Shown here piece after piece: positions 28,791 to 55,781 of a stretch of DNA of 64,000 nt. The stretch's first letter is position 1, and every line of letters begins with the position of its first letter. The stretch lies in assembly GCF_988243305.1 (NCBI RefSeq), contig NZ_OZ547136.1; one strand, given 5' to 3'. The notes beneath the pieces were generated by a model. The model was not told where the DNA came from. It was given only the letters and a program-made list of their open reading frames with translations, and did not search any database. A program made the translations under genes and the position numbers.

Positions 28791-29060
28791 GCATTTAAAT
28801 CCCGCTATTTCTTCGGTCTATGATTTTGTTATGCTGTAAATGTGTTAATCACATATGGTAGACCATATCATTAATATTTAATCATACTATCGAATCATTC
28901 AATTTAAATATATTTGCATGTTATGATTTTCATTTTTCTATTGATTTAATGAATTTATATTTGCTGTTATTTTTGTTTGTTCTGATTCAAGTGGAGTATA
29001 TAATTAAAAATCGTTAGCTAAACATTACCATGATTATGACAGGCGAGGGAGTGTCCGATT

Positions 29061-29846
29061 ATGAATTTAAGAAGGGTTTGTTGTATATGTGTATTATTCT
29101 CGCTGCTTGCAGGATGTGCCTCTGAATCTCCTATTGATGAAAAAAAGAAAAAAACTCAAACCGCACAAAGTTCTATTAATAAAAACGTTCCCCAGCAACT
29201 AACAGACAAAGATTTATATGGTAATGAAACCACACTGGCTGTATCCGAGGAGGATATTCAAGCTGCGCTTGAAGGAGATGAGTTTCGTGTGCCTCTTAAT
29301 TCTCCCGTTATACTTGTTCAGTCTGGCAGTCGCGCACCGGAAACCATTATGCAGGAGGAGATGAGAAAATATTATACAGTTGCCACATTTTCTGGCATTC
29401 CTGACAGGCAAAAACCTGTAACTTGTAATAAAGACAAAAACAAAGATGAAAGTCTGGATGTTGTAGATGCCGAAAATATGAACTGGATGCAGGCATTACG
29501 TTTTGTTGCGGCAAAAGGCCATCAGAAAGCGATTATTGTTTTCCAGGATACGTTGCAGACAGGAAAATATGACTCTGGATTGAAATCAATAGTTTGGTCA
29601 GATTATAAAAATCAAAAATTGACTGACACGATGTCACTGCGTTATTTGGTTCGATTCACGCTGGTGGATGTGGCTACAGGTGAGTGGGCTACCTGGTCGC
29701 CTGTGAATTATGAATCGAAAGTGATTTTTCCGCAGATAGGGAATAAAAATTCTGACAGCCTTGATGTGGCAGAACAGCAGATTTCACAACTTAAGCAGAA
29801 AACGTACGCAGCAGTGGTTAAAGATCTGGTGAATCGCTATCAGTAG
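29061..29846 (+). CDS. yafT: Lipoprotein YafT
   Basis: 261 aa ORF with lipoprotein signal peptide ([12 protein letters not shown]); AT-rich gene immediately after the tRNA-Asp. Confidence 0.75.
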
Positions 29847-30070
29847 TAAGGTTTTATACCAGACGTTTTAATGGTACTTAGCAAGAAAGAGCATTTTCTT
29901 TTCTATTTATACTCTGGTTCAAGTCTGCTAATTAATTCTACATATATATTTTTTTAGGAGTAGTAAAAAACTTTACTAAAGTTATTTATTGTTCTCTCAA
30001 CATATAAGCTGTAGTTCGAGTTTTCGGTTGAACTGTCAAAAATACATCATACACATCTATAAAACAGCAG

Positions 30071-30110
30071 GTACGGTTAATTAAGAATTTTTATTCGTGA
30101 TTAACCGTAC
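30071..30110. terminator. Hairpin terminator at the distal end of the minus-strand T6SS operon
   Basis: gtacggttaat...attaaccgtac: 11 bp perfect inverted repeat, with a U-run on the minus strand (ctgctgtttt) about 70 nt downstream of the hcp stop. Confidence 0.55.
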
Positions 30111-30182
30111 TTTATCATTTTATAATGTTAAATTGCCTTTTTAAAATATAACAATAATGCAGATGAAAAACGCCCAGGTAAC

Positions 30183-30662
30183 TTAGAAAATCCGTTCACT
30201 CCAAAGGCTGTACGCACTGGTTCCGGCGACGCTGTGCTCCCAGTTGATACTCTCATAGGTAAATGACACAGACTCTTCCGGCTGTCCTGGGCTGTCGTTA
30301 ATGGTATGGGGAACGGTAAGGCCGATGTTTGAGATCCGGGCGTTAGTCAGTTTCACCTTGTAGTACGGTTCATTAACACCAAAGCGGTTGGTGCGATAGA
30401 ATACAAAATCACAGGTCAGACATTCATTCTCCGAAATTGCCTTGCCCAGCAGGGGGGAAGATTTGTCCACCGGTTTCGTGATGGTCAGCTCCTGGTGGTT
30501 GACATTCTGCGCCCGGCTCAGACCATGGGACAGTGACGTCACCATGATCTGATCCTGATGTGCAATCTGGGCTTTGTTACCGATGGACGGCATTGACGAG
30601 CATCCGGATGAAATCAGCCCCTGAAGTTCTCCGTTCAGTGTCAGATAGACGGGATTTGCCAT
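30183..30662 (-). CDS. hcp: T6SS tube protein Hcp (TssD), distal divergent copy
   Basis: 159 aa from MANPVYLTLNGELQG with RBS AAGGAGAATAACA upstream; Hcp-like sequence. The upstream 129 codons of tracked ORF 30183..31049 overlap vasL out of frame and are not part of the gene. Confidence 0.8.
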   Translation of the reverse strand: MANPVYLTLNGELQGLISSGCSSMPSIGNKAQIAHQDQIMVTSLSHGLSRAQNVNHQELTITKPVDKSSPLLGKAISENECLTCDFVFYRTNRFGVNEPYYKVKLTNARISNIGLTVPHTINDSPGQPEESVSFTYESINWEHSVAGTSAYSLWSERIF

Positions 30663-30679
30663 TGTTATTCTCCTTAAAC

Positions 30680-32041
30680 TCAATGGGTCGGAGGGACTGG
30701 CACGGTGCTGTTGTCCGTTGCCATATCCTGTCCGGTATTTTTCAGCAACAGCCAGCGGCTTAACAGCCCATCCAGCCGTTGGTTGATCTCTTTTGCTAGC
30801 GCTTGTGTGTCCTGATTCTGCGTGCGGGTCTCCTGGTACTGCGTCAGCATGTACTCCAGTGGAGTTTCCTGATTCAGTAACCGTTCGGCCTGCCAGGTCA
30901 CCGTTTTGATATACGAGAGGGTGAAACCCTGTTTCTCCGTCTCCTTTTTCATCATCAGATCCGCAAAATCCCGCAAATTCTGCCGCGCCTGTTGCCAGCC
31001 CTTCATCTGCGGACTGGCTTGCGCCCGGTTTCTCAGCGTGGTGCTCCACATCCGGCTGGCTTCCTGCTGTTGCAGGCTTTCCGGCCAGAGGGTGTCTGCG
31101 GTGCGCATCATCTGCATTCCGGTTTCCAGCGGCTGTAGCGGTGGGGTATTCAGAAGCTGTTGCAGGTTCTGTTCATATTCTTTCAGTACCGGTGATGCCA
31201 GCCAGACGGTGGCTGCTCCCTGTGTGGTATCCCTGACCTTTGTAAGCTGCCGCTGCATCGGGTACGTCTGCCACCACCAGAGTGCAGCAGCGATAACGGC
31301 AGTACAGGCGGCACCGGCAACAAAACCTTTTACCGTGTCGCCCTGTTTTGCTTTGTCGGCGTTATCTGCCACTCCGCGCACCTCCACCCGCATTTCCGGC
31401 AGGTCGGGTAGGGGGGGCATGGTTTCCGCTGTGGCGGAAGCCGTGCCTTTAGGCGCATAGACCAGCGTTCTGACCATGGTCTGTACCGCCGTAGCAGTAC
31501 GGTTTCTGGGCTGCGGCTCAAACCGCTTGCGTGTGTTCTGCACAAAATAAAGCAGATTTTCCACGCGCGGTTGGCGCTTCAGTTCCACCTGCTGGAGTTT
31601 GTCGCAGATAAGCTGCAAAGCCCGTTCCGTGCGGTAGAGCAACGAAAGATCATTTTCGGAAAAGGAAACCTGCTGGCGCAGGATATTCCCGGTGCGGGTG
31701 TTGAACCAGTCCAGCATCTCAGTCCTCGCCGGGCCACTTTGCGGCCAGAATTTATCCCATTCGTGGGTGATCATCGCAGCTAGCAGTTCCGCGCCTTCAC
31801 AGAACCCTGCCAGTCCCTGATTACGTGTACGTGCCAGCGTATAGTAGGTGGCGGTATGCAAATCCACCCCGTTGGCCTTAAAAATTGACAGCGCCAGCGA
31901 TTCCACTAGTTTCCAGTTCAGCTCCGGCTGTGACGGGTGGTTAGCTTTGTTAATTTCTTCGCGGATGGCGCTGAACTCCGGCAGGGTACGCGGATCGCTG
32001 CCGGTAACGATAGTTTGTGTCAGTACATTGTTGCTCATCAC
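30680..32041 (-). CDS. vasL: T6SS accessory membrane protein with ImpA-N-like domain (VasL/TagA-like)
   Basis: 453 aa; N-terminal region resembles the ImpA_N domain; single predicted TM helix (GFVAGAACTAVIAAALWWW); sits directly after tssM as vasL does in the V. cholerae cluster. Confidence 0.6.
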   Translation of the reverse strand: MMSNNVLTQTIVTGSDPRTLPEFSAIREEINKANHPSQPELNWKLVESLALSIFKANGVDLHTATYYTLARTRNQGLAGFCEGAELLAAMITHEWDKFWPQSGPARTEMLDWFNTRTGNILRQQVSFSENDLSLLYRTERALQLICDKLQQVELKRQPRVENLLYFVQNTRKRFEPQPRNRTATAVQTMVRTLVYAPKGTASATAETMPPLPDLPEMRVEVRGVADNADKAKQGDTVKGFVAGAACTAVIAAALWWWQTYPMQRQLTKVRDTTQGAATVWLASPVLKEYEQNLQQLLNTPPLQPLETGMQMMRTADTLWPESLQQQEASRMWSTTLRNRAQASPQMKGWQQARQNLRDFADLMMKKETEKQGFTLSYIKTVTWQAERLLNQETPLEYMLTQYQETRTQNQDTQALAKEINQRLDGLLSRWLLLKNTGQDMATDNSTVPVPPTH

Positions 32042-32049
32042 TAACCCCC

Positions 32050-35000
32050 TTAATACAACGTATCCGGTAAACGGAATTGGCTGAACAGACCACCGGTGAA
32101 CGGGTTATCTTCGGTATCCACATGCACCCGATAAACCATCGCGCCGCCGTCCACGTTAAAGCGCACGTTAAAGGTGTCACTGGTCACGTTGGTCAACTGG
32201 CCCGCGCCGAACAGGCGGAACTGCGCCCACGGTCCACTGAAAGCGATACTGCGCGGTGCTCCACCGCTGGTGCCAACCAGCGTCAGCTTGCTTTCATTGC
32301 CTTCACGCATGTTGTTTGGCCAGACCAGATGGGCGGTATAGTTGCGTCCCTGGCTGTAGTCCACTAACTGGCCGTCCAGGTTAAGTACGCTGCGCCGTTT
32401 ATTGCCGGAAAGCGACACCGTTTCCACGGCAAATTGTGTGCCCAGCCCGTTCTGCTGGCTGAAGAAGATGTCGCGGATTTTTTGCGCGGTATCCAGTTGT
32501 TGTCGGATATCTTCACGGATCAGCACTCTGCCGTCGTCGCCAAAGGTCAGATCGTTTTCAAGGAACAGTCGCAGGTTGTCCTTATAGAAATTGTCCAGAA
32601 TGCCATCCGGTTTAAAGAAACGTTCAAACGCATCCAGTGAGGCATCCTGTGAGGCGCGTGGATTAAACGGATAGTTACCGGCAAGCTGTTCGTTGAAGGG
32701 TTTCACTACATTGTCGCGCCAGTCCACTTCCATGTAATGAACAGCTTCCACCATCACCACGTGCCAGGCCTGATCCGCCAGCTTGCCCACCCAGCGGTTA
32801 AGCGGTGCAGGCAGGGTTTTTGCCATCTGGCGGGTGGCGAAGATTGGATCGCTGCTGTTTTGATCCAGGCGTAGCTGCACTGCTTTCAGCGCCGATTTTC
32901 CCGGCACTGGCGAGTTCTGGATCGCCAGCAGGTAACGGTGCAGCTCGGTCAGTTGCTGGTACACGGCCTGTAGCGTACTCGCCTTGTCCTTTTGCTCCTC
33001 CAGTGCGCTGTTTTCCGGTGCGAACTCATGCCCCAGCCGGGACAACAGGCGGTAATCCATCTCATTTATCACCGCTTCCCGCGCCTTATCGTCCAGTTTG
33101 CCGGAGAGCGTCAGCGCGTGTGTATTATCGCGCAGCGCCGTCAGCGCACGCTGGAATGGCTGATCGCCGCTGATAATCTGCTCCAGCGCGTCGGTCAGCG
33201 CCGGCATGGCCTCATAGTCACGGACGTTGAGATTATCCATTCCGGCACGCCATGTAGCGGTATAGTCACTGAGGTACTGTTCAGTGATATGGCGCTGGAT
33301 CTCTTCACGGTCGGCCTCGCTGTAGGCGACGCTTTGCGTCAGGTTCAGCACCCACGAATCCAGCGCGGTCAACTCAACGAGACCGTCGTGTTGTTTGATA
33401 AAATAGCTTTGCAGGCCATAGCGGGTGAGAAACTGCGGGATCACCAGTTTTTCATCATTACCGGCGACGAACACGTTGTCGAAGGTGGGACCAACCTGGT
33501 CGCGCAAATTCAAATCGGCGGGCAACACGCTTAATGCTTTGGTGCGTAGGGTCTGGTAGACACGCTGGTATATCGGCAGTTTGCTCAGTTCATGTTGCGC
33601 ATTAATGACCGGTTTATCATAGGGTGTCCAGCGGCTGATGGCGTCGCTGTCGCCGCTCTGGCGCTGCGCGTGCCAGTCGGTGTGTTCCAGCGCATAGTCC
33701 AGATGTGCCATCAGTTGCGCCTGAATATCACGCTGGCCGTGAAATTCATTGCTCCAGCGCCGCGCCATGTACTGTTTTACCGCCTCGTTGTTGCGCCCAC
33801 TTTTGTCTTCCATCATGCGCACTACGCGCAGCACGGCGAGTTTTTCTTCACTCTCAGGCGGGGCATTGTTCAGATCCCGGATCAGGCCGTTCATTAACGA
33901 GGGGAGATAACGCTGCTCAAGAAGCTGAATGTAGGTTTGTTCCACATATGGCCCTACGCGGACGCCCTGGTACAATCCCATATCCGCCAGAAAACCGTGA
34001 TCGCGGTAATCGCCGTAGGCGAGGGTGGCATCGCGTACCGGGTTGAGTAACGGCAGTTGCAGATTGCCGAATTCATCCTTTCCCTGCGGTGGTGGTACGT
34101 CCATAAAGGCTTTAGCCTGTGCCAGTACGTTAACGCCGGACTGCCAGTTCTGGTTGTAATAATGGTGCCAGCTTCCGACCAGCAATGCCGCCAGTGCCGC
34201 GCCACAGGCGGAAAAGGCGGTCAGCCTGCGCCGGGAGCTGTTCAGCCAGACGCTGTTTTCACCTGCAAGGTTTGGCTCGGCTAGCAGGACTTCCGGGAAG
34301 AGGCGGCGGGTGAAATACGGCGTTGTTTCCACCAGGGGCCAGGTCGCCAGCGAGCTGTTGCCCAGCCCGTACTGGCGGGCGGCGGACTGCGTGAAAATAT
34401 CATCCACCTGGCCGCGCTGTAGCGAGGATGTGAGCCAGACGCCGCGCAGCATCACATCCATATTCTCGCCGTCCAGCAATGCGGCGAGCAGTGAAGTGAC
34501 GATTTCTCCCGTTCCCTGCATCTGACGGGAGAAGCTGAACACGGCGCTGCGTAGCGCAGCACCGGTCTGCACGAGCATCAGGTCTGACAGGGCCAGGTTC
34601 ATCTGTTGTCCCCAGGTCTGCCAGAAGGTGCTCAGCTCGCTGCGCCAGTCATCGTTTTCATGAGCGCGGCGGGTAAACGTGACGCCGAGGATCGCGTCGC
34701 GGTCTTTTTTATCCAGTGAATGGAACAGCGCGGCAAAGCCGGTCAGTAGATCCAGCCGGGTCAGCACCACATAAACGGGCAACCGGCAGTGCAGGCACTG
34801 GCGAATTTCCTGAAGTTGCTGACGCAGATTTTGTACCAGTGCTTCGCGACGGAGTTTATCCGCCGTCAGCAGTTCGGGAAGATCGAGCGTCAGGATCAGA
34901 CCATTGAGCGGCTGGCGTGCGCGCGTTTCCATCAGCCAGCCCAGCCAGTGTTCGCGCAGGCGGCGGTGGAGCAGATCATCCCCGCCGGGGGAGGTCAGTA

Positions 35001-35577
35001 CGCCGTCAACATCGAAAATTACTGCCTGGTTGCCCACTCGCGGTGTGATCAGCGGATGATATTCCACACCCCGGATGCTTTCCGGCATGTAAATAATGTC
35101 AGACGGAAAGCCCTCGCGCAGCAGCGTGCTTTTGCCGCTACCCGCAGGACCAATGACCATATACCACGGCAACTGCCACAGATAACTGCGGTTATCCAGA
35201 TGGCGGCGCAGGCGCAGCAGCCAGTGATCCAAATATTGCTGCTGGTGGTGGAGTTCCACGGTCAACGGATCTTTTTCTTCCTCCCGCTGCTGTTTCTGCT
35301 GTTTTTCCAGCTTTTGCAGACGCTTCATTACCCGCCAGGTGAGCCAGACCAGAGCGATAAGCCCCCAGACGGCGGTCGCCAGCCAGCGGTTTGCCAGCGG
35401 AGCCAGCCAGTGCTGCTCATAGAGCGTCCATTTTGGACCCTGCCACCAGATCCACACCAGCAGAAAAATCCATGCCAGCGCCAGCAGCCAGGCGGCGGAT
35501 ACCTTGAATCGCGGCATCGCTGGCCTGAGCGCAGATCTCAACGAGCTGAACAGTCGGGATGTGGGAAATTTGAACAC
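32050..35577 (-). CDS. tssM: T6SS membrane-complex protein TssM (IcmF/VasK)
   Basis: 1175 aa; N-terminal TM helices and Walker A motif GPAGSGKST; size and position match TssM. Exact start uncertain. Confidence 0.9.
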   Translation of the reverse strand: MFKFPTSRLFSSLRSALRPAMPRFKVSAAWLLALAWIFLLVWIWWQGPKWTLYEQHWLAPLANRWLATAVWGLIALVWLTWRVMKRLQKLEKQQKQQREEEKDPLTVELHHQQQYLDHWLLRLRRHLDNRSYLWQLPWYMVIGPAGSGKSTLLREGFPSDIIYMPESIRGVEYHPLITPRVGNQAVIFDVDGVLTSPGGDDLLHRRLREHWLGWLMETRARQPLNGLILTLDLPELLTADKLRREALVQNLRQQLQEIRQCLHCRLPVYVVLTRLDLLTGFAALFHSLDKKDRDAILGVTFTRRAHENDDWRSELSTFWQTWGQQMNLALSDLMLVQTGAALRSAVFSFSRQMQGTGEIVTSLLAALLDGENMDVMLRGVWLTSSLQRGQVDDIFTQSAARQYGLGNSSLATWPLVETTPYFTRRLFPEVLLAEPNLAGENSVWLNSSRRRLTAFSACGAALAALLVGSWHHYYNQNWQSGVNVLAQAKAFMDVPPPQGKDEFGNLQLPLLNPVRDATLAYGDYRDHGFLADMGLYQGVRVGPYVEQTYIQLLEQRYLPSLMNGLIRDLNNAPPESEEKLAVLRVVRMMEDKSGRNNEAVKQYMARRWSNEFHGQRDIQAQLMAHLDYALEHTDWHAQRQSGDSDAISRWTPYDKPVINAQHELSKLPIYQRVYQTLRTKALSVLPADLNLRDQVGPTFDNVFVAGNDEKLVIPQFLTRYGLQSYFIKQHDGLVELTALDSWVLNLTQSVAYSEADREEIQRHITEQYLSDYTATWRAGMDNLNVRDYEAMPALTDALEQIISGDQPFQRALTALRDNTHALTLSGKLDDKAREAVINEMDYRLLSRLGHEFAPENSALEEQKDKASTLQAVYQQLTELHRYLLAIQNSPVPGKSALKAVQLRLDQNSSDPIFATRQMAKTLPAPLNRWVGKLADQAWHVVMVEAVHYMEVDWRDNVVKPFNEQLAGNYPFNPRASQDASLDAFERFFKPDGILDNFYKDNLRLFLENDLTFGDDGRVLIREDIRQQLDTAQKIRDIFFSQQNGLGTQFAVETVSLSGNKRRSVLNLDGQLVDYSQGRNYTAHLVWPNNMREGNESKLTLVGTSGGAPRSIAFSGPWAQFRLFGAGQLTNVTSDTFNVRFNVDGGAMVYRVHVDTEDNPFTGGLFSQFRLPDTLY

Positions 35578-35596
35578 AGTAACTCCTTGTTATCTT

Positions 35597-37039
35597 TTAC
35601 TGTTCTGCCGTGAATTTTTGTTCCAGTGCTTTCAGCAGGGAAGGCTCCCATTCGGGTAGCATCATGTGTAAGCCTGTTTTGAAGAGCATCCGGTACTGCT
35701 GTTGTGCAAGCTGAACCATACCGGCTTCTTCCAGTAACTGCGCGCCGAAAAATTGGCGATGAAACTGGTTACGGGGATCACCTTCGGGCAGGTTTTCCAG
35801 ATACCGCAGCGCGGTTTCCAGCCCGTTCTCATCGAAGCACGCCCTGGCCGCCTGTAATTCTTCATCGGTCTGTACAGCTGCTGCGGTTTGGTTGCCTGAG
35901 CCCGATGGTGCCAGCCACTGTTTCGTCTGTTCGGACACAAACGGAGTGCGGTCGTTAAACAACAGGTTGATCAGTGCGGGCAGGCGAGCAAGAAAACTGG
36001 TAACTTCATCACGGATAGCATCCGCCACCTGTATATAACCAAGGCGCAACGCGGTCTGTGCTGAGAGGTAATGGCCGTCCAGCCAGTACGGGGCCAGCAG
36101 CAGGCTTTTTTCCACCTGCTGCCAAAGCGCCATGTCGGCATTGTTCAGTCGCGCCAGATAGTCATCCATCATATCTACAGGGAAAGCAGCCAGAGGGGTC
36201 CGGCCATCGCTTTCTGCCTGCGGGGTACTGGTGATGGTCTGCCACAGCGCATGGCGGCGCAGGCGGTAACCCAGCGGTGACTCCGGCTGACGTTCACAGA
36301 GAATGGCGGCTACCTTCAACAGGGTGTCGCGCCATGCTTTATCATCGTGGCTGTCCACGGTGACCTGCGGGATTGGAGTGGCTGCAACAGGAGGCTGAGC
36401 GGAAACTGTGTGCGGTAACATATCCGGTGCAGATCCGGTCGTGGCCTGCGGCGCAATGGCGGCGGTTCGTGCAGATGATGGCATTTCAGGCGCTACATCA
36501 CGAAACGCGCGCTGAAACAGAGTAAATAAATCGTCTGTCGCCTTAGCCAGCTCAGGCGCGTTGTGCGCCTGCCAGCACAGTGCCAGTTTTGCCAGCTCTC
36601 CCAGCAAAGCATCGCGCTGTGTTGTCACAGCATTCCCGGCAAAGTCATGAATGGCCGACTCAAAGCGTTTTATCACTTGGGTGGCGAAGCGTTTTTTGTG
36701 GGCCATGTTCTGCGGCGCGGCGCATGTCCAGTAGTGCTCTGTATATTGTGTCAGTATCCTGGAGGCCAGCAGAATATCACCGGCATGTTGCAGGGTACGC
36801 AGCAGGTGGGCCAGCAGGCGAAAATCTTTGGTTTCTGAGGCCAGAAGCATCAGGCCCCGGCGCTGAAGTTCGGGGATATCAAGCTGGCTGTGCGCCAGTG
36901 AACCGAGCTTGACGATTTCGCTGTCGATAAACTCCCAGTCTGCATTGCCATCATCAAGCGCGGCGGACAGCTTATCTTCCGGCAGGTTTTCCAGCAGGTG
37001 TGCAAGCCATATATCAGGATTACGTAAGTCCATTGCCAT
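35597..37039 (-). CDS. tssA: T6SS protein TssA (VasJ; ImpA N-terminal domain)
   Basis: About 480 aa from MAMDLRNPDIWL with RBS AGGAGA; start lies 5 nt from the vasI stop. Confidence 0.8.
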   Translation of the reverse strand: MAMDLRNPDIWLAHLLENLPEDKLSAALDDGNADWEFIDSEIVKLGSLAHSQLDIPELQRRGLMLLASETKDFRLLAHLLRTLQHAGDILLASRILTQYTEHYWTCAAPQNMAHKKRFATQVIKRFESAIHDFAGNAVTTQRDALLGELAKLALCWQAHNAPELAKATDDLFTLFQRAFRDVAPEMPSSARTAAIAPQATTGSAPDMLPHTVSAQPPVAATPIPQVTVDSHDDKAWRDTLLKVAAILCERQPESPLGYRLRRHALWQTITSTPQAESDGRTPLAAFPVDMMDDYLARLNNADMALWQQVEKSLLLAPYWLDGHYLSAQTALRLGYIQVADAIRDEVTSFLARLPALINLLFNDRTPFVSEQTKQWLAPSGSGNQTAAAVQTDEELQAARACFDENGLETALRYLENLPEGDPRNQFHRQFFGAQLLEEAGMVQLAQQQYRMLFKTGLHMMLPEWEPSLLKALEQKFTAEQ

Positions 37040-37043
37040 ATTT

Positions 37044-37787
37044 TTATTCTCCTGCCCAGTGGCAGGCGTCGCGTAGCGGCGCAATAACCCGCGCCAGCCC
37101 GTCAATGTTAAAGGTCAGCTTTCCGGCAGCATTGTCTGTGCCGGTATCAACCGTCAGTGTTTTAGCAGCGAATAGTTGCTTAATTTCATCAATACCGGAT
37201 AACCCCCGGCTGGACTCCAGCAGGGTGCCGTTCTCGCGCACAAACCAGTGGCTGCGCAATGCCCGGCTGTCGGCATTCAGGGTGACGGCGATATCATGGA
37301 CATCCAGAGGATGCATCAGCGCCACCTGCATCCGGGTGATATTGTCCACGCAACTGAACATCAGCACCGGGCGCGGCGGAACATGACCGATAGCCGGGGT
37401 GGTTATCACTACCGTCGGGCGTTCACCCGGCACCTGCGTCACCAGCAGCTCTGTGGTGCTGCCCTGGCGGCGTTTTTCCTGCTCTGTGGCGCGGGTCCAG
37501 GCTTCGCCCACAAAGCTGGCTTTGACCAGTGCGGCGTTGCCGAAGCCGGGCTGTTCCGGTGCAAGAATGCGGTCATAACAGTCAAGCCGCTCCAGCGCCG
37601 CAGATTCCCGCCGACAGGACTGCATGGCCTGTAACGTGGCTGTCGCATCCGGCGGGGGCGTGGTGGCGACGGCGACCGCCGCACCGGCCATTGACGATGT
37701 TTCTGCGGGCGCGGCACTGGCGGGTAAGCCCGCCATCAGGCCCGCGATAAACCATCCTGCCTGCCGGAAAACGCGCAACCTGCTCAT
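37044..37787 (-). CDS. vasI: T6SS-associated protein VasI family (signal-peptide protein)
   Basis: 247 aa; N-terminal signal-like segment (AGLMAGLPASAAPA); lies between clpV and tssA, the position of vasI in V. cholerae. Confidence 0.6.
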   Translation of the reverse strand: MSRLRVFRQAGWFIAGLMAGLPASAAPAETSSMAGAAVAVATTPPPDATATLQAMQSCRRESAALERLDCYDRILAPEQPGFGNAALVKASFVGEAWTRATEQEKRRQGSTTELLVTQVPGERPTVVITTPAIGHVPPRPVLMFSCVDNITRMQVALMHPLDVHDIAVTLNADSRALRSHWFVRENGTLLESSRGLSGIDEIKQLFAAKTLTVDTGTDNAAGKLTFNIDGLARVIAPLRDACHWAGE

Positions 37788-47760: not shown

Positions 47761-49245
47761 TTATTCCTTATCCAGTCGTCCGACCAGGCTCAGGTCGAAA
47801 CTGGCACCCATGTATTTAAAATGCGGTCTGACAGAAATCGCGACCTGGTACCAGCCCGGCTCACCATCCACATCCAGTACCTCGATCTTAGCCTGACGCA
47901 AAGGCCGGTGGCTGCGGACTTCGGCAGGCGGATTTTCCTGGTCAGCAACATACTGGCGAATCCAGGTGTTCAGCTCACGCTCCAGGTCACTACGTTCTTT
48001 CCATGAGCCAAGCTGTTCGCGCTGAATTACCTTGATGTAATGCGCTAACCTGCTGATAACAAACAAGTATGGCAGCTGGGTGCCGAGTTTATAGTTGGTC
48101 TCCGCAGCCTTGCCTTCGGGGGTTTTGGGGAATGTTTTGGGTTTCTGCACCGAGTTGGCCGAGAAAAAGCACGCATTATCAGACCCTTTACGCATGGTCA
48201 GTGTGATAAAGCCCTCTTCCGCCAGCTCATACTCTCTCCGGTCAGTGATCAACACTTCAGTCGGAATTTTTGCCTGCATTTGCCCCATGGATTCATACAG
48301 ATGCACCGGGAGGTCTTTGACTGCGCCGCCGCTGGAAGGGCCAATAATATTTGGGCACCAGCGATACTTAGCAAAACTTTCCGCCAGGTTGGCGGCCAGT
48401 AAAAACGAGGTATTCCCCCACAGATAAGACTCATGACTCTGGCTGACATCTTCATGGTAACGGAAGGTTTTGACAGGGTTTTCATCCGGTGAGTAAGGGT
48501 GGCGCAGCAGGAACCGGGGGGCGGTCAGGCCCAGGTAACGGGAATCTTCCGATTCACGCAGGGCGCGCCAGCGGGAGTAGGCCGGGCCTTCAAAGATGGC
48601 ACCCGGTTCTTTGATCCCCGGTAACTCTGTCCATGAATCCAGACCGAAAAATTCGGATGATACTGACGACAGGAACGGGCTGTGCGCCATCGCGCTGACC
48701 TGGCTGATATATTTCAGCAACTTCATATCCGGCGTGGTGTTCTTAAAGGCAAAGTTGCCGATTACCGCCGCCACTGGCTCACCGCCAAATTGTCCGTAAC
48801 CGCTTGAATATACATGCTTGTAATACGCAGACTGCGTGATTTCAGGTGCAAATTCGAAATCATCCAGCAGTTCTTCCTGAGTGACATTCAGGAAATGGAC
48901 TTTGATGTTTTCCCGTGTATCCGCGCGTTCAACCAGCAGCTTCAGCGAGCGCAGCAGGGATTCCAGTTCCTGAAACTCCGGGGCATGAATAATGGCATCC
49001 ATCTGCCTGCTGGTTCGGGCATCAATATCAGCAATCATGGCGTCAACGGCCAGGATATTGATAGGTTCAGCGCTACTGTCGCCCTGTAACATGGCGGCAA
49101 TAAAGGCGCTCACGCCCTGGCGGGTGATATCGTAGCTTTCTGATTTAGGCTGGACGCGGGTTTGCGCCATGATTTCATCAAGCAGAGATGGGGGCGCGGC
49201 GGTTTGAGACGCGCTGACGGGAGCAATTTCTTCCTTTACTGACAT
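47761..49245 (-). CDS. tssC: T6SS contractile sheath large subunit TssC (VipB)
   Basis: 494 aa; highly conserved sheath protein length and position. Confidence 0.93.
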   Translation of the reverse strand: MSVKEEIAPVSASQTAAPPSLLDEIMAQTRVQPKSESYDITRQGVSAFIAAMLQGDSSAEPINILAVDAMIADIDARTSRQMDAIIHAPEFQELESLLRSLKLLVERADTRENIKVHFLNVTQEELLDDFEFAPEITQSAYYKHVYSSGYGQFGGEPVAAVIGNFAFKNTTPDMKLLKYISQVSAMAHSPFLSSVSSEFFGLDSWTELPGIKEPGAIFEGPAYSRWRALRESEDSRYLGLTAPRFLLRHPYSPDENPVKTFRYHEDVSQSHESYLWGNTSFLLAANLAESFAKYRWCPNIIGPSSGGAVKDLPVHLYESMGQMQAKIPTEVLITDRREYELAEEGFITLTMRKGSDNACFFSANSVQKPKTFPKTPEGKAAETNYKLGTQLPYLFVISRLAHYIKVIQREQLGSWKERSDLERELNTWIRQYVADQENPPAEVRSHRPLRQAKIEVLDVDGEPGWYQVAISVRPHFKYMGASFDLSLVGRLDKE

Positions 49246-49267
49246 ACTGAAAATCCTTCTGTGAAAA

Positions 49268-49771
49268 TTATTTCTGAACGGCGATACCCAGTTCCTGGAT
49301 CAGCTGCTCGCGGCTGTCTTCGTTTTCCAGTAGCGCCTGAAGTTGTGCGCGGAAGGCCGGAATATTGCCTAGTGGAGACTTAAGTGCGACCAGTGCCTCA
49401 CGCAGCTCCAGCAGGCGCTTTATTTCCGGCACCTGACTGGCAATATGGTCAGGAGAAAGGTCATCCATAGATTTGACTTTCAGGTTGACGTACATTTGCT
49501 CATTGGGAGCGTCACTGAGTTCAGCCGGAACAACAAACTCCCGTTCAATGTCAGCTTCTGAAATGACTGCGTTGAGGTTATAGCGGTTGATAGCAATGGC
49601 AGTTCGCTCATCCAACGGCGTGTTATCTGGTTTCCCTTTCAGATTGCCGGTGATCAATAAATTCAGCGGCAATTCGATATCAGCAGCCACCCCATCAACT
49701 TTTGGTGTATACCGAACGCTGATTCTTTCTTTCGGCGCGACACTGCCGCCATTGTTGTTCATTTTGCTCAT
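49268..49771 (-). CDS. tssB: T6SS contractile sheath small subunit TssB (VipA)
   Basis: About 167 aa from MSKMNNNGGSVAPKERISVRYTPK; first gene of the minus-strand operon. Confidence 0.9.
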   Translation of the reverse strand: MSKMNNNGGSVAPKERISVRYTPKVDGVAADIELPLNLLITGNLKGKPDNTPLDERTAIAINRYNLNAVISEADIEREFVVPAELSDAPNEQMYVNLKVKSMDDLSPDHIASQVPEIKRLLELREALVALKSPLGNIPAFRAQLQALLENEDSREQLIQELGIAVQK

Positions 49772-49822
49772 AAAAATGTTCCCGTTCAGGCCATGAGCAC
49801 AGCATTTTCGTACTGCATACAA

Positions 49823-50474: not shown

Positions 50475-50993
50475 ATGCCAACCCCATGTTACATTTCTAT
50501 TACGGGCCAGACCCAGGGGAACATCACTGCCGGTGCTTTCACCGCGGATTCTGTCGGCAATATCTACGTGCAGGGGCACGAAGATGAAATGCTGGTGCAG
50601 GAGTTTTTGCACAACGTTACTGTTCCAACCGATCCGCAGTCTGGCCAGCCTTCCGGCCAGCGCGCGCACAAACCGTTCATTTTCACCGTGGCGCTGAACA
50701 AAGCCGTTCCGCTGCTGTACAACGCGCTGGCCTCCGGTGAAATGCTGCCGAAAGTGGAGCTGCACTGGTGGCGTACTTCAGTTGAAGGCAAGCAGGAGCA
50801 CTACTTCACCACACGTCTTACTGACGCGACGATTGTGGACATGAACCTGCACATGCCGCACTGCCAGGACCCTGCACAGCGTGAGTTTACGCAATTGCTC
50901 GCAGTATCACTGGCATACCGTAAGGTTGAGTGGGAGCACATCAAATCCGGTACTTCTGGTGCCGATGACTGGCGTGCACCGCTGGAAGCATAA
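50475..50993 (+). CDS. hcp: T6SS tube protein Hcp (TssD), canonical copy
   Basis: 172 aa from MPTPCYISITGQTQGNITAGAF with RBS AAGGAG; strong resemblance to the canonical Hcp as remembered from V. cholerae. Confidence 0.92.
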   Translation: MPTPCYISITGQTQGNITAGAFTADSVGNIYVQGHEDEMLVQEFLHNVTVPTDPQSGQPSGQRAHKPFIFTVALNKAVPLLYNALASGEMLPKVELHWWRTSVEGKQEHYFTTRLTDATIVDMNLHMPHCQDPAQREFTQLLAVSLAYRKVEWEHIKSGTSGADDWRAPLEA

Positions 50994-51213
50994 ATCTGAG
51001 TCAACAACATCCTGCCTTCGTGCAGGATGTTGTTTTTGTACGTGTAAAAAATGAGTGTCAGTAAGGAGTTACGCTTTCATGAGGGAGATGGCGGATGCCG
51101 GAAACCCGGGCGGTAGCGTACCTGAAAATGTAAAGATGAGTGTAACGCTGCACTGGCACCCTTTGCTGCATGGTGAGAATCATTTGGTCCGTGAATAAAT
51201 CAGGGGGGTCATT

Positions 51214-53196
51214 ATGTCCTTAAAAGGTCTGCGCTTTACGCTGGAGGTTGACGGCCAGGAGCCGGACACCTTTGCAGTGGTGAATTTCAGGTTAATCCAG
51301 AACCAGTCATATCCGTTTGTGATGAGTGTGGATGTTGCCAGCGACTCTTTTATGCAGACGGCGGAGATGCTGCTGGAGAAGAAGGCGACACTGACCATCT
51401 GGCAGGGCGCAGTGGCGCAGCGTTATGTCACCGGCGTGGTGGCGGGTTTTGGCATGCAGGAGAATAACGGCTGGCAGATGCGTTATCACCTGCGTATTGA
51501 GCCGCCGTTATGGCGGTGCGGGCTGCGGCAGAACTTCCGTATCTTCCAGCAGCAGGATATCCGGACGATATCGGCCACGTTACTGAACGAGAACGGCGTC
51601 ACGGAGTGGACGCCGCTGTTTTATGAGGACCATCCGGCGCGGGAGTTCTGTGTCCAGTACGGGGAGTCGGACCTGGCGTTTCTGTCCCGGCTGTGGGCGG
51701 AGGAGGGAATTTTCTTCTTTGAGCGGTTTGCGGCGGACAGTCCGGAGCAGAAGCTGACGCTGTGCGACGATGTGGCGGGGCTGTCACAGGCGGGAGAGCT
51801 TCCGTTTAACCCGGACACATCGACAGGAGCGGAGACGGAGTGTGTCAGTATGTTCCGTTATGAGGCGCATGTCCGCCCGTCGTCGGTGCAGAGCCAGGAT
51901 TACACGTTTAAGGTGCCGGACTGGCCGGGGATGTATGAGCAGCAGGGTGAGAACCTGAACGGACAGCTGGCGCAGTATGAGATATTTGATTATCCGGGAA
52001 GGTTCAAGGACGAGCAGCACGGCAAGGATTTCACGCTGTACCAGATGGGCAGCCTGCGCAGTGATGCGGAAAAGGCCACAGGGCAGAGTAATTCACCGAA
52101 GCTGTGGCCGGGAACGCAGTTTACGCTGACGGGGCATCCGCAGAAGATGCTGAACCGTGAATGGCAGGTGGTACAGAGCATACTGTCAGGAAGCCAGCCG
52201 CAGGCGCTGCACGGCAGCCAGGGGAGAGGAACCACGCTGGGAAATCAGTTAGAGGTGATACCGGCAGACCGGACGTGGCGTCCACGGCTGCAAAGCAAAC
52301 CGAAGGTGGACGGGCCACAGAGCGCCATTGTCACCGGGCCTGCGGGAGAGGAAATCTTCTGCGACGAACATGGCCGGGTACGGGTGAAGTTCCACTGGGA
52401 CCGTTATCACGGGATGACGGAGGCGAGTTCATGCTGGGTGCGGGTATCGCAGGCGTGGGCGGGGCCGGGTTTCGGCAATCTGGCGATACCGCGGGTGGGT
52501 CAGGAGGTGATTGTTGATTTCCTGAACGGCGACCCGGACCAGCCGATAATCATGGGACGGACATACCATGAGGACAACCGTTCGCCGGGGAGTCTGCCGG
52601 GGACGAAGACGCAGATGACGATACGGTCGAAGACCTATAAAGGAAGCGGATTTAACGAACTGCGCTTTGAGGACGCCACAGATAAGGAACAGGTCTATAT
52701 TCACGCGCAGAAGAACATGGATACGGAAGTGCTGAATGACCGGACGACGGACGTGAAGCATGACCACACGGAAACCATTGGTAACGACCAGAAGATAACG
52801 GTGGGGTTGGGCCAGACGGTGAATGTGGGGAGCAAAAAGGAAGGTGGTCATGACCAGAAAGTGACGGTAGCGAACGATCAGCATCTCACGATAAAAAATG
52901 ACCGGCACAAGGTTGTAAATAACAACCAGACAAGCAAGGTGACGGGAACTGATACCGAAGAAGTCGTCAAAAAACAGAGTATTAAAATAGGTGATAATTA
53001 CGAACTGAAAGTTGAGCATGGTACAAAAATCATATCTGGGGACAGTATTGAGCTAATTTGTGGGCAGGGAGAGAGCGGGACTTGTTCCATAAAACTGGAG
53101 AAAACAGGAAAGATAATAATACGGGGGACGGAGTTTCTATTTGAGGCTACCGGTCCTGTAGATATTAAAGGAAAAGATATTCATCTGAACGGATAG
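51214..53196 (+). CDS. vgrG: T6SS spike protein VgrG (TssI), no C-terminal toxin extension
   Basis: 660 aa; gp27/gp5-like VgrG; C-terminal repeats (HDQKVTVANDQHLTIKNDRHKV); the 3' about 350 nt are visibly AT-richer than the rest. Confidence 0.92.
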   Translation: MSLKGLRFTLEVDGQEPDTFAVVNFRLIQNQSYPFVMSVDVASDSFMQTAEMLLEKKATLTIWQGAVAQRYVTGVVAGFGMQENNGWQMRYHLRIEPPLWRCGLRQNFRIFQQQDIRTISATLLNENGVTEWTPLFYEDHPAREFCVQYGESDLAFLSRLWAEEGIFFFERFAADSPEQKLTLCDDVAGLSQAGELPFNPDTSTGAETECVSMFRYEAHVRPSSVQSQDYTFKVPDWPGMYEQQGENLNGQLAQYEIFDYPGRFKDEQHGKDFTLYQMGSLRSDAEKATGQSNSPKLWPGTQFTLTGHPQKMLNREWQVVQSILSGSQPQALHGSQGRGTTLGNQLEVIPADRTWRPRLQSKPKVDGPQSAIVTGPAGEEIFCDEHGRVRVKFHWDRYHGMTEASSCWVRVSQAWAGPGFGNLAIPRVGQEVIVDFLNGDPDQPIIMGRTYHEDNRSPGSLPGTKTQMTIRSKTYKGSGFNELRFEDATDKEQVYIHAQKNMDTEVLNDRTTDVKHDHTETIGNDQKITVGLGQTVNVGSKKEGGHDQKVTVANDQHLTIKNDRHKVVNNNQTSKVTGTDTEEVVKKQSIKIGDNYELKVEHGTKIISGDSIELICGQGESGTCSIKLEKTGKIIIRGTEFLFEATGPVDIKGKDIHLNG

Positions 53197-53302
53197 TGCA
53201 GGATATAAAACATGGTGATTGTATTTGCTTTATACGCCTGTGAATCACCATTTGTGATTGTTTAAATTAATCATAGCATGACTTATTCAGGAATCAATAA
53301 GC

Positions 53303-54349
53303 ATGATAGAAATGAAAAATAACACACCATTTCCTTTGTTGTCATTTGAAAAATATGGTCGTTATGGTCTTTTGTTTGATGTTATTGCTATTAAAATGTC
53401 ATTGCGAATTAAAAATGGATTTTATGCTGATCTTGCTGAGTTTCAAAAAGAATTGTCCATGTCTGATGAATACTATGGGGAGTCTGAAACAAGTAGTCTA
53501 AAATCTGAAACAGACTTAGTTCTTTGTAAAAGAAATACAGATATTCACGTGACAGGTAGTGCTCATGCCCCTCCAGGGGATAAGTCTAAGTGGAAGGCTT
53601 GTGTGAGGGTTAATAGTTTTTCTAAAGAACTGAGTTTATCTGGTGTCCGCTACTTACAATATGAGCGAAATCGTTGGCAGATGAGCTTACCAGATAAAAT
53701 TATTAATGTTCCTCTACGCTATGAGCTTGCTTACGGTGGTATTTGGCAACCAGATGGTATGGAGAAATTGGTTTTTTCAGCAAACCCTGTAGGTTGTGGA
53801 TATTATCCTGATATTTCTCAACTTAATACAAGTTGTCAATATAAACTCCCACAAATAACCAGCTCTGCTTTGTCAGAAAACGCTACCATTTTTAATGGGG
53901 AATCTGACTTTTTTCAAGGTGTTGGCCCTGTATCTCGATGGTGGAAAAGTCGCCTCCAGTATGCAGGAACCTACAATGAAGTATGGCGTGAAAAGCGCTA
54001 TCCCTATTTGCCGGATGATTTTGATGAGCGGTTCTACAATAGTGCTCATCCGGATATGATATACACGGGGTTTCTCTCTGGCGATGAAAACATCTCTCTT
54101 GAAGGTTTTTTTAAATTTGAACAGGTTGTTAAGACAAAATTGCCAGGTATACGACCTGTACTTATATTAAAAACCAAGCATAATACATCACATATGTTCT
54201 TACCTGTTGCGGATACAATGGTTATCGATTTAAGTCGACAGGAAATATACCTTACCTGGAGATTAACAATACCTGATTTTTTTGGAATGAAAGAAGGAGT
54301 GCTGAGTTGTATTATTCCTGAATGTATAGGGAAAAAATATTATGGGTAA
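53303..54349 (+). CDS. Putative T6SS adaptor protein (DUF2169-like)
   Basis: 348 aa AT-rich gene immediately downstream of vgrG and translationally coupled (8 nt overlap) to a PAAR-like effector gene, the canonical DUF2169 context; assignment is by context and size, not verified by search. Confidence 0.5.
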   Translation: MIEMKNNTPFPLLSFEKYGRYGLLFDVIAIKMSLRIKNGFYADLAEFQKELSMSDEYYGESETSSLKSETDLVLCKRNTDIHVTGSAHAPPGDKSKWKACVRVNSFSKELSLSGVRYLQYERNRWQMSLPDKIINVPLRYELAYGGIWQPDGMEKLVFSANPVGCGYYPDISQLNTSCQYKLPQITSSALSENATIFNGESDFFQGVGPVSRWWKSRLQYAGTYNEVWREKRYPYLPDDFDERFYNSAHPDMIYTGFLSGDENISLEGFFKFEQVVKTKLPGIRPVLILKTKHNTSHMFLPVADTMVIDLSRQEIYLTWRLTIPDFFGMKEGVLSCIIPECIGKKYYG

Positions 54350-55382
54350 CTATCATATCGGGGATGGTGAATGTAGATTTAGAGTCGTGTGTTCTTCACC
54401 AGATGTATGTGAAGTAGGAGGTTACAAGGTTCCTTTTGACAGTTACCAGACTTTAGATAGTGAAAGACAGTACAGTTCAACGGTATGGGCGCGTGGATGC
54501 AGAGCTTTAAATGTTGGTTCAGTGATTGCTGGAACTCAAAGTAATGCCGGTAAAGGTGTCATATCCGGTACATCTCAAGGAACGGGTGACTGTGTTATTT
54601 TAACGGGAAGTCCGACTGTAACAATAGAAGGGAAACCTGTTGCTTATCATGGTTCAGTTGTTGGGATTAATAACCATAACTGCCTTGGTAAATTGTATAC
54701 CAAAATAAAATCACCAATGATTTCTGTCATTGATAAAACTTTTAGTTATGAAAGGACTGCTGAAGTAATACACGATTTACTGCTTCTGAAGGATCTCCTT
54801 TCTGTTGGGAATATTTTGGGCGGAGATATTTCACCTGAGGTTAAAAATGATTTATTTCAAATAAAAGATCCTGACCAATCATGGGGGGAGTTTTTTTCAA
54901 TAAAGAATATCAGAGAATCTCTCAGGAATGGTATTGAAGGAGATAAATCTCAGATCAGAGAATGGTTTGGAGAGAACACACTTACTCAAATGGGCAATGG
55001 AGCAATCACCACTTTACATGGTGTGGCGGATTTAGCCTTAGTTACATTCGATGCTCTGTTAGATACGGCAACGGCAACGGTTGCTTGCCCGATAGGCGAA
55101 GATGGGTTATGTGAACAGGCAAATATAAATTTAAATGAAAAAGAACAGGCTTTATTTAATATTAGTAATTCATTGATAAATGGGCAAGCATGGGATGCAC
55201 TTAAAAAAATGATAATGGATACAAATAATGGTGATCAGATTGCTCTGGAGCATTTTGCCAGCTTTTTATGGGGCTTTATGATACCCGCAAAAATACCAGA
55301 AGAAAATATCTCTGGGAAAGTATTTGTAGAGCCAGTAGTTTTAGAAGGTGGTGCTGGTGGCAATTGGACAGTATTTGATTAG
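54342..55382 (+). CDS. PAAR-like (DUF4150-type) T6SS effector, N-terminal and linker portion; ends at an in-frame TAG
   Basis: 346 aa; N-terminal about 125 aa with the DUF4150-like pattern (GTGDCVILTGSPTVTIEGKPVAYHGSVVGINNHNCLG); helical central region; the stop TAG at 55380..55382 is in frame with the following toxin-like ORF. Confidence 0.6.
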   Translation: MGNYHIGDGECRFRVVCSSPDVCEVGGYKVPFDSYQTLDSERQYSSTVWARGCRALNVGSVIAGTQSNAGKGVISGTSQGTGDCVILTGSPTVTIEGKPVAYHGSVVGINNHNCLGKLYTKIKSPMISVIDKTFSYERTAEVIHDLLLLKDLLSVGNILGGDISPEVKNDLFQIKDPDQSWGEFFSIKNIRESLRNGIEGDKSQIREWFGENTLTQMGNGAITTLHGVADLALVTFDALLDTATATVACPIGEDGLCEQANINLNEKEQALFNISNSLINGQAWDALKKMIMDTNNGDQIALEHFASFLWGFMIPAKIPEENISGKVFVEPVVLEGGAGGNWTVFD

Positions 55383-55409
55383 GTTTTAGATTCAAATGTA
55401 ATAAAGCAA

Positions 55410-55781
55410 TTGACTTTAACAGGCTGTGGAGCGGCCTGTGGGGAAATGTTGCTTAGGGATAGGTATATTTTTGTCACGCAAAATGTAATTGGAACAGAAT
55501 TAACATCTATGACGTCGCTGGCAAACAAGCTTAATAAATTTGATGTCGGCTGGGAAGGGAATGAAGTGAGCGAATCTAGTTTATATGCCCTCAGTAATAC
55601 TGGTTCATGGGGAGCAATGATGTGGGATTCTGGAAGTAAAGTAGGGCATTGGGTACTTGTTAAGGGTGTTGATGATGCTGGGAATGTGATAATATATGAT
55701 CCATATCAAGGGAGTCGATATCTGATGACTGAACAGGAATTTAAGGAGGTATGGAATGGGCATAGTGTTTACAAACCATAA
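55410..55781 (+). pseudogene. Papain/C39-like cysteine-peptidase toxin domain, in frame with the upstream PAAR ORF (split by one TAG codon)
   Basis: 123 codons with no ATG or RBS before the putative catalytic Cys (GCGAACGEMLL); His (GHWVLVKG) and Asp (DDAGNVIIYDP) complete a papain-like Cys-His-Asp order reminiscent of peptidase C39; continuous with ORF 54342..55382 except for one TAG. Confidence 0.45.

Follow-up and report, generated by a model that had tools for sequence, protein, structure and literature searches.

Why should one type VI secretion system (T6SS) be encoded with two Hcp proteins as unlike as those of the E. coli aspV/yafT island? The question is raised by a stretch of 64,000 nucleotides (hereafter, the window), which covers the E. 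coli chromosome at dnaQ, tRNA-Asp(aspV) and yafT and carries this island. The main operon runs in the order tssB, tssC, tssE, tssF, tssG, tagH, tssJ, tssK, tssL, clpV, vasI, tssA, tssM, vasL, hcp. As shown in Table 1, a second hcp lies at the other end of the cluster on the opposite strand. Core-operon genes, whose ORFs are all intact, were named from the list of open reading frames and from the annotation of a genome (NZ_CP148331) that is 100% identical over 29000-32100. A preliminary description of this DNA had called the hcp at the vasL end (distal) much more divergent than the canonical one beside tssB (proximal), and had raised the possibility that such a distal paralogue acts as a carrier for particular effectors.

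Table 1. Features of the T6SS island discussed in the text, in window coordinates.
Feature	Position	Strand	Remarks
yafT	29061..29846	+	lipoprotein (lipobox LLAGC), PF25851; convergent gene at the island end
Spacer from hcp stop to yafT stop ('cargo position', empty)	29847..30182		336 bp, 28% GC
Hairpin (possible terminator)	30061..30110	-	11-bp stem (GTACGGTTAAT...ATTAACCGTAC), then CTGCTGTTTT (T-run); RNA fold z = -2.6
Distal hcp (Hcp2A, type IIa short-loop Hcp)	30183..30662	-	159 aa; TIGR03344, PF05638
Shine-Dalgarno of distal hcp	30670..30675	-	AAGGAG, 7 nt 5' of the ATG; read from the sequence
vasL	30680..32041	-	TssA-like, ImpA_N and VasL domains; directly upstream of distal hcp
tssM, tssA, vasI, tssH/clpV, tssL, tssK, tssJ, tagH, tssG, tssF, tssE, tssC, tssB	32050..49822	-	core operon
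Proximal hcp (Hcp2B, canonical, long-loop)	50475..50993	+	172 aa; TIGR03344, 209.3 bits
vgrG, DUF2169 adaptor, PAAR-like and C39 peptidase genes	51214..55781	+	from ORFs and the NZ_CP148331 annotation

The distal ORF is a real and intact member of the Hcp tube family. Its product scores 204.6 bits against TIGR03344 (TssD/Hcp; cutoff 58.9), the profile spanning residues 1-156, and covers the full PF05638 model with an E value of 3.3e-24, so that its assignment to the Hcp family in the preliminary description holds. The ORF order likewise confirms the gene as the last of the tssB-to-vasL operon, within the T6SS cluster and closing the minus-strand unit. Its ATG at 30662 is separated by 17 nt from the stop of the preceding vasL, a gene that has weak TssA matches in NCBIfam, is named 'VasL domain-containing protein' in RefSeq, and carries PF06812 and PF12486 in its orthologues. 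An AlphaFold2 model of the distal protein (mean pLDDT 78.6) was used to search the PDB with Foldseek. The top matches were all Hcp proteins, with TM scores of 0.79-0.81 to 6a2v and 3he1, and the predicted structure has the Hcp beta-barrel fold. No toxin domain is attached to its Hcp domain, so it does not belong with the Hcp-ET proteins.

The proximal hcp is transcribed divergently from tssB and is the first gene of an hcp-vgrG operon. Its product is WP_001142963.1 both in Z1323HEC0462, a strain identical to the window, and in strain XM. It was correctly described as canonical, since it scores 289 bits to the V. cholerae Hcp (5mxn). The distal protein reaches 83 bits at most with any solved Hcp, and in an alignment of 168 columns the two Hcps are 29% identical, which bears out the contrast between them. 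They also differ in the loop between beta2 and beta3 (L2,3 or Vs2). The segment H46..K63 has 16 residues in the distal Hcp versus 25 in Hcp2B and other canonical Hcps, a shortening of nine residues. The words 'much more divergent' thus apply to the loop loss and to the distance from solved Hcps; they do not apply to the fit to the Hcp profile, which is equal for the two proteins (204.6 versus 209.3 bits).

Neither the distal gene nor the arrangement of two hcps is new. The gene is the E. coli Hcp2A, known together with Hcp2B from T6SS2 of the avian pathogenic E. coli TW-XM. Ma et al. 2018 (PMC5874247) cloned it with primers Hcp2A-F and Hcp2A-R, which coincide exactly with the ends of the distal ORF; their Hcp2B primers coincide with the ends of the proximal hcp. 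The distal product is identical at 154 of 159 residues (97%) to WP_000013181 of ExPEC strain XM, where the flanking genes and operon layout are also the same. Among 5,426 complete E. coli genomes, 610 have the gene, and RefSeq names its product an Hcp family protein. In the TW-XM study, Hcp2A was classed as 'type IIa', without the L2,3 loop ('Vs2'), and deletion of that loop from Hcp1 or Hcp2B stopped their secretion and effector delivery. Delivery of the toxin XmtU needed Hcp2B and VgrG2. Phagocytosis was inhibited by Hcp1 and Hcp2B but not by recombinant Hcp2A; antibodies to Hcp2A were found in infected ducks, and the two hcp genes differed in their response to duck serum. That study assigned no cargo to Hcp2A and did not discuss what lies downstream of the gene in other islands (PMC5874247). 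The comparative context is the potentially useful part of the present analysis.

The names given to E. coli Hcps are inconsistent across papers, and 'Hcp1' and 'Hcp2a' denote different genes, which affects how those virulence studies are read. In the AE17 papers (PMC9885592), the primers named 'Hcp2a' correspond to the proximal 172-aa hcp, the Hcp2B of Ma et al. In the DE205B meningitis paper (PMC9503490), the primers used for complementation of 'Hcp1' are an exact match to tssB (window 49268..49771, minus strand). RS218 'Hcp1' was reported to be more than 99% identical to Hcp2A (PMC5874247). This equivalence was not adopted, because a later paper with the RS218 naming amplifies tssB as 'Hcp1'.

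The spacer that follows the distal hcp is empty. It contains no ORF longer than 42 aa, and tblastn searches of the spacer and the whole window with every downstream cargo gene of the sister islands found no remnant, in agreement with the earlier remark that no effector gene follows and that the next gene is the convergent yafT. The same contiguous hcp-yafT junction is present in 579 E. coli genomes. The hairpin in the spacer is a possible operon terminator judging from its stem and T-run, and was not called by a consensus terminator scan. Of the 27 loci compared, which span several genera, 23 have a YafT homologue (46-97% identity) as the convergent end gene next to this T6SS operon. The same is true of loci with hcp ahead of vasL, and of another E. 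coli copy of the island, located at tRNA-Asn and accompanied by an integrase. YafT therefore travels with the island, and appears to behave as island cargo or as a T6SS accessory gene rather than as a housekeeping neighbour.

The 27 loci (the window, strain XM and 25 others, a few of which duplicate one contig type) differ in what lies immediately 3' of the short-loop hcp. For example, C. youngae (L027/L029) has a 287-aa PF01832 glucosaminidase without a signal peptide, then a 117-aa protein with one, and the same pair is found in Lelliottia V86_10 (L024; 283 and 127 aa). In Buttiauxella A111 (L021/L030) a 265-aa protein with PG_binding_1 and Peptidase_M23 domains is followed by small signal-peptide proteins. 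B. brennerae (L017) has a 291-aa TM-rich protein with no Pfam match, then three paralogous membrane proteins of about 157 aa that resemble YkfM. The position is occupied in Citrobacter by an AcrVA2-like gene (PF26125; 339 aa at L006 8482-9501, 360 aa at L012 6429-7511) with no obvious immunity gene, and degenerate copies of an AcrVA2-like gene are present in L010, L015 and L018. Small ORFs occur there in Hafnia and E. coli E57, and the 233-aa downstream protein of Lelliottia WAP21 had an insignificant SLT match.

An effector-like gene linked with an immunity-like gene is thus found behind or beside hcp in L017, L021, L024, L027/L029 and the E. coli HS locus (L035), and is absent from the window. 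The peptidoglycan hydrolases among these products have no signal peptide. In the loci compared, neither their genes nor the other cargo-like genes adjoin a gene for PAAR, VgrG or an adaptor. This combination, as seen in the hydrolases, is what usually marks cargo of the Hcp type. The hcp gene itself adjoins vasL in nearly all of the loci; it comes after vasL, but before it in Trabulsiella and B. brennerae. In C. youngae a 172-aa hcp is accompanied by vgrG, DUF2169 and PAAR-Rhs genes and a 159-aa hcp by the small hydrolase. Since both hcps are kept in this organism, the two-hcp layout is conserved beyond E. coli.

A commoner variant of the island is found in about 2,547 of the 5,426 E. coli genomes, including strains HS, PCN033 and O26. 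Its distal short-loop Hcp has 160 aa and is 57% identical to that of the window, and the genes follow in the order hcp, 304-aa protein, YkfM, yafT (HS: L035 3278-4681). The 304-aa protein is TM-rich and of membrane type, with a glycine-rich hydrophobic C-terminal region, and YkfM is a polytopic membrane protein. The former is 36% identical to the 291-aa protein of B. brennerae (E 2e-57); the latter has weak similarity (E 4e-5) to the three proteins of about 157 aa in the same locus. With this variant, roughly one complete E. coli genome in two contains candidate effectors that are so far uncharacterised. Counted separately, ykfM occurs in about 3,000 genomes and the hcp-effector pair in about 2,550. 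The K-12 derivative J53 (L037 3501-4346) has kept yafT and ykfM, together with a partial ORF, abutting an ISAs1 fragment, in which residues 187-304 of the 304-aa protein recur with 100% identity. The partial ORF is presumably the yafU region. This arrangement suggests that K-12 ykfM may be an orphan immunity gene and the stump of the 304-aa gene an effector remnant. Functions can in this way be suggested for yafT, ykfM and yafU of K-12, genes with no known role; no paper in the literature library searched ties ykfM or yafT to T6SS function.

In E. coli PCN033 (L034 12061-13269, 29237-29695) the 304-aa gene is split by ISVsa5, and the RefSeq sequence has tssG split by IS200C. Both splits bear on the reading of the hcp-mutant phenotypes published for that strain. 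The competition result is uninformative for a carrier function of the distal Hcp, because the 304-aa gene is interrupted and the prey, W3110, as a K-12 derivative like J53, should presumably carry ykfM. In that work, the mutant in the distal hcp (the 160-aa sister type) was still competitive against W3110 and the proximal-hcp mutant was not; the distal-hcp mutant also replicated less in macrophages (PMC4882540).

Homologues of the distal Hcp of the window with the same length of 159 aa, 70-97% identity and no indels are found in Salmonella, Citrobacter, Enterobacter, Kluyvera, Hafnia, Buttiauxella, Lelliottia, Trabulsiella and other genera. The gene is under strong purifying selection despite the empty position behind it, with dN/dS of 0.04-0.12 against orthologues and 0.04-0.10 against alleles from other islands where the position is empty. 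Such constraint means that the gene must do something in the window strain. The region equivalent to Vs1 of Ma et al. (loop L1,2, residues 19-32) is mostly invariant whatever cargo follows, and no co-variation with cargo is visible in this region in the orthologue alignment.

Beyond the orthologous group, many of the nearest relatives are fusions of Hcp with a toxin, 335-663 aa in length. The closest relatives in a library of 1.84 billion proteins were aligned and their loops compared, a short loop being defined as 21 residues or fewer in the H46..K63 segment. All 16 of the Hcp-toxin fusions have a short loop, versus 19 of 51 unfused Hcps of similar identity (Fisher 4e-6, a value that ignores relatedness and comes from matches ranked against a short-loop query). 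One fusion is of particular relevance. The 421-aa protein P0130 (L036 1312-2577, on a metagenome contig of 3.5 kb without T6SS context) consists of a short-loop Hcp domain and, joined to it, a homologue of the E. coli 304-aa family. Its C-terminal part matches that family over 229 columns with an hhalign probability of 97.5% (E 6.7e-12), and the pairwise match to the Buttiauxella protein has E 2e-8. A small DUF1240 membrane protein is encoded after P0130; it has no similarity to YkfM, which itself has no Pfam match. A second apparent fusion of this kind, P0278, comes from a eukaryote gene set and was set aside as a likely gene-calling artefact. On the most economical reading, the members of the Hcp family that act as carriers would be those with the short loop.

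These observations can be brought together by a division of labour. The long-loop Hcp2B would build the tube and serve the VgrG/PAAR spike route. Hcp2A would form rings that bind and enclose small effectors lacking signal sequences, and would co-assemble with Hcp2B so that the loaded rings ride inside the Hcp2B tube. The cognate cargo of Hcp2A would normally be encoded directly 3' of its gene, or be fused to a short-loop Hcp. In the island variant of the window this cargo would have been lost or was never present, and Hcp2A may there carry effectors encoded elsewhere or be an unloaded minor subunit of the tube. That Hcp2A is a cargo-carrier Hcp next to an empty cargo position is, in our judgment, about evenly balanced between right and wrong. 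We hold a broader version of the idea more tentatively, and somewhat doubt it as a whole: short-loop Hcps may be dedicated carriers that mark a swappable toxin/immunity position at the vasL/yafT end of enterobacterial islands of the V. cholerae type, with hydrolases or the 304-aa protein and YkfM as its contents and nothing in the present ExPEC-type island. In that case ykfM would be orphan immunity, yafU the stump of an effector and YafT an accessory lipoprotein. The division would give a testable reason for two unlike Hcps in one T6SS, one for the tube and one for cargo.

The cargo-like genes behind orthologous hcps in other genera, several of them effector- and immunity-like, and the joining of a short-loop Hcp to an effector-like family in P0130 indirectly favour the carrier function first proposed in the preliminary description. 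The short loop of all 16 fusions, the two-hcp layout of C. youngae, the TW-XM results on the long loop, on XmtU delivery and on antibodies to Hcp2A (PMC5874247), and the low dN/dS and constant length of the protein also fit it. The empty position in the window does not. Neither the window nor the 579 genomes like it have an adjacent effector, and selection is strong all the same; Hcp2A may have a role that is independent of cargo. Adjacency alone is no proof of Hcp-dependent export, and not everything encoded at the position is recognisable as a toxin (the AcrVA2-like gene; the small ORFs in Hafnia and E57). The candidates, at 26-34 kDa, are also large for one Hcp ring; enclosure of a cargo by two rings has been shown for Hcp3-Tce1 (PMC13323088). 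An attempt to map the Hcp3-Tce1 contacts S29, S31, E56, T60, G121 and K123 (PMC13323088) onto the 3he1 alignment met with a misfit in numbering. The Hcp3 chain of 9qpe, the Tce1 complex, matched the distal Hcp model far more weakly than 3he1 did, and the contact argument was dropped. On balance the carrier idea gains support from genome comparison and is now open to direct test.

If Hcp2A acts without cargo, it could be a minor structural component of the tube that always occupies one site, with its short loop adapted to the contact made there. This site might be the ring that sits first on the VgrG base, or the ring that lies last, beneath the TssA/VasL cap. Its position as a core-operon gene beside vasL in nearly all loci would fit such a role, as would strong purifying selection that persists where the cargo position is empty and the L1,2 region that stays mostly invariant whatever follows. 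We consider it unlikely, since V. cholerae, with the same gene order, has to our knowledge no such second Hcp, so there is no general requirement for one in this type of T6SS, and since the recurrent effector-like downstream genes and the fusions are left unexplained. The retained competitiveness of the PCN033 mutant in the 160-aa sister gene (PMC4882540) also counts against it. A spare or condition-specific tube protein, interchangeable with Hcp2B and expressed with the apparatus while hcp2B is regulated separately, would agree with the equal fit of both proteins to the Hcp profile and with their genes lying in separate transcription units that respond differently to duck serum. Interchangeability is nevertheless distinctly unlikely for two proteins that share 29% identity: loss of Hcp2B alone ends XmtU delivery even with hcp2A present (PMC5874247), and the long loop that Hcp2B requires for its secretion is naturally missing in Hcp2A.

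The RefSeq name 'Hcp family T6SS effector', the antibodies to Hcp2A in ducks (PMC5874247) and the lower macrophage replication of the PCN033 mutant in the sister gene (PMC4882540) could instead point to a secreted effector acting on eukaryotic cells. Recombinant Hcp2A, on the other hand, failed to inhibit phagocytosis (PMC5874247), the clade is common in environmental and commensal Enterobacteriaceae, where it adjoins cargo of antibacterial type, and much of the literature on 'Hcp effectors' deals with other genes (AE17 'Hcp2a', DE205B 'Hcp1'). We judge an anti-host effector to be very unlikely. The empty position, and the degenerate downstream remnants in L010, L015 and L018, might suggest a paralogue decaying without function after its effector was lost. 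This is hardly credible for a gene with an intact ORF, a strong ribosome binding site, a length that is invariant across genera and dN/dS of 0.04-0.10 against the very alleles that also lack a neighbour.

The carrier function proposed for Hcp2A has counterparts in known systems. In the large cluster of V. cholerae, vasL at the distal end is followed by vgrG3-tsiV3. The tssB-to-vasL order, with a peptidoglycan-hydrolase effector/immunity module at the vasL end, is thus common to that cluster and the enterobacterial islands; in V. cholerae the effector is part of a VgrG, whereas the enterobacterial islands have an Hcp gene there and separate small hydrolases. In P. aeruginosa, rings of Hcp1 with Tse2, and of Hcp3 with Tce1 or Tce2, enclose small effectors without PAAR or VgrG, which is the mode proposed for Hcp2A, and Tce2 is co-transcribed with hcp3 (PMC13323088), much as genes are found behind the distal hcps of sister islands. 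There, however, one Hcp per system is both tube and carrier, while the window has two dissimilar Hcps for one apparatus and the carrier role is proposed from sequence. The 'evolved' Hcps with C-terminal toxins, or Hcp-ETs (Ma et al. 2017, as summarised in the review PMC6730261), share 32-44% identity and the shortened loop with Hcp2A. They are among its nearest relatives beyond the orthologous group, and one carries the homologue of the 304-aa protein; the window protein, with an Hcp domain only, has no such extension. Bacteroides T6SSs, as cited in PMC13323088, have several Hcps, mixed rings and effector specificity. More than one Hcp is likewise present here, although the Bacteroides systems are of a different class.

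The genes beyond the proximal hcp form the spike-linked effector route that is paired with it; an XmtU/XmtV module of this kind has been described (PMC5874247). XmtU in that account is a single protein with PAAR-like and C39 peptidase domains. At 54342-55781 (plus strand) of the window, and likewise in NZ_CP148331, there are two ORFs, one PAAR-like (346 aa) and one for the C39 peptidase (123 aa), and an XmtU-type toxin may be split or truncated here. NZ_CP148331 also has an extra module past the proximal hcp, made up of vgrG, a DUF4123 gene, two hypothetical genes and a PAAR gene. It is absent from the window at 50993-53196, so that the spike-effector end varies among otherwise near-identical strains.
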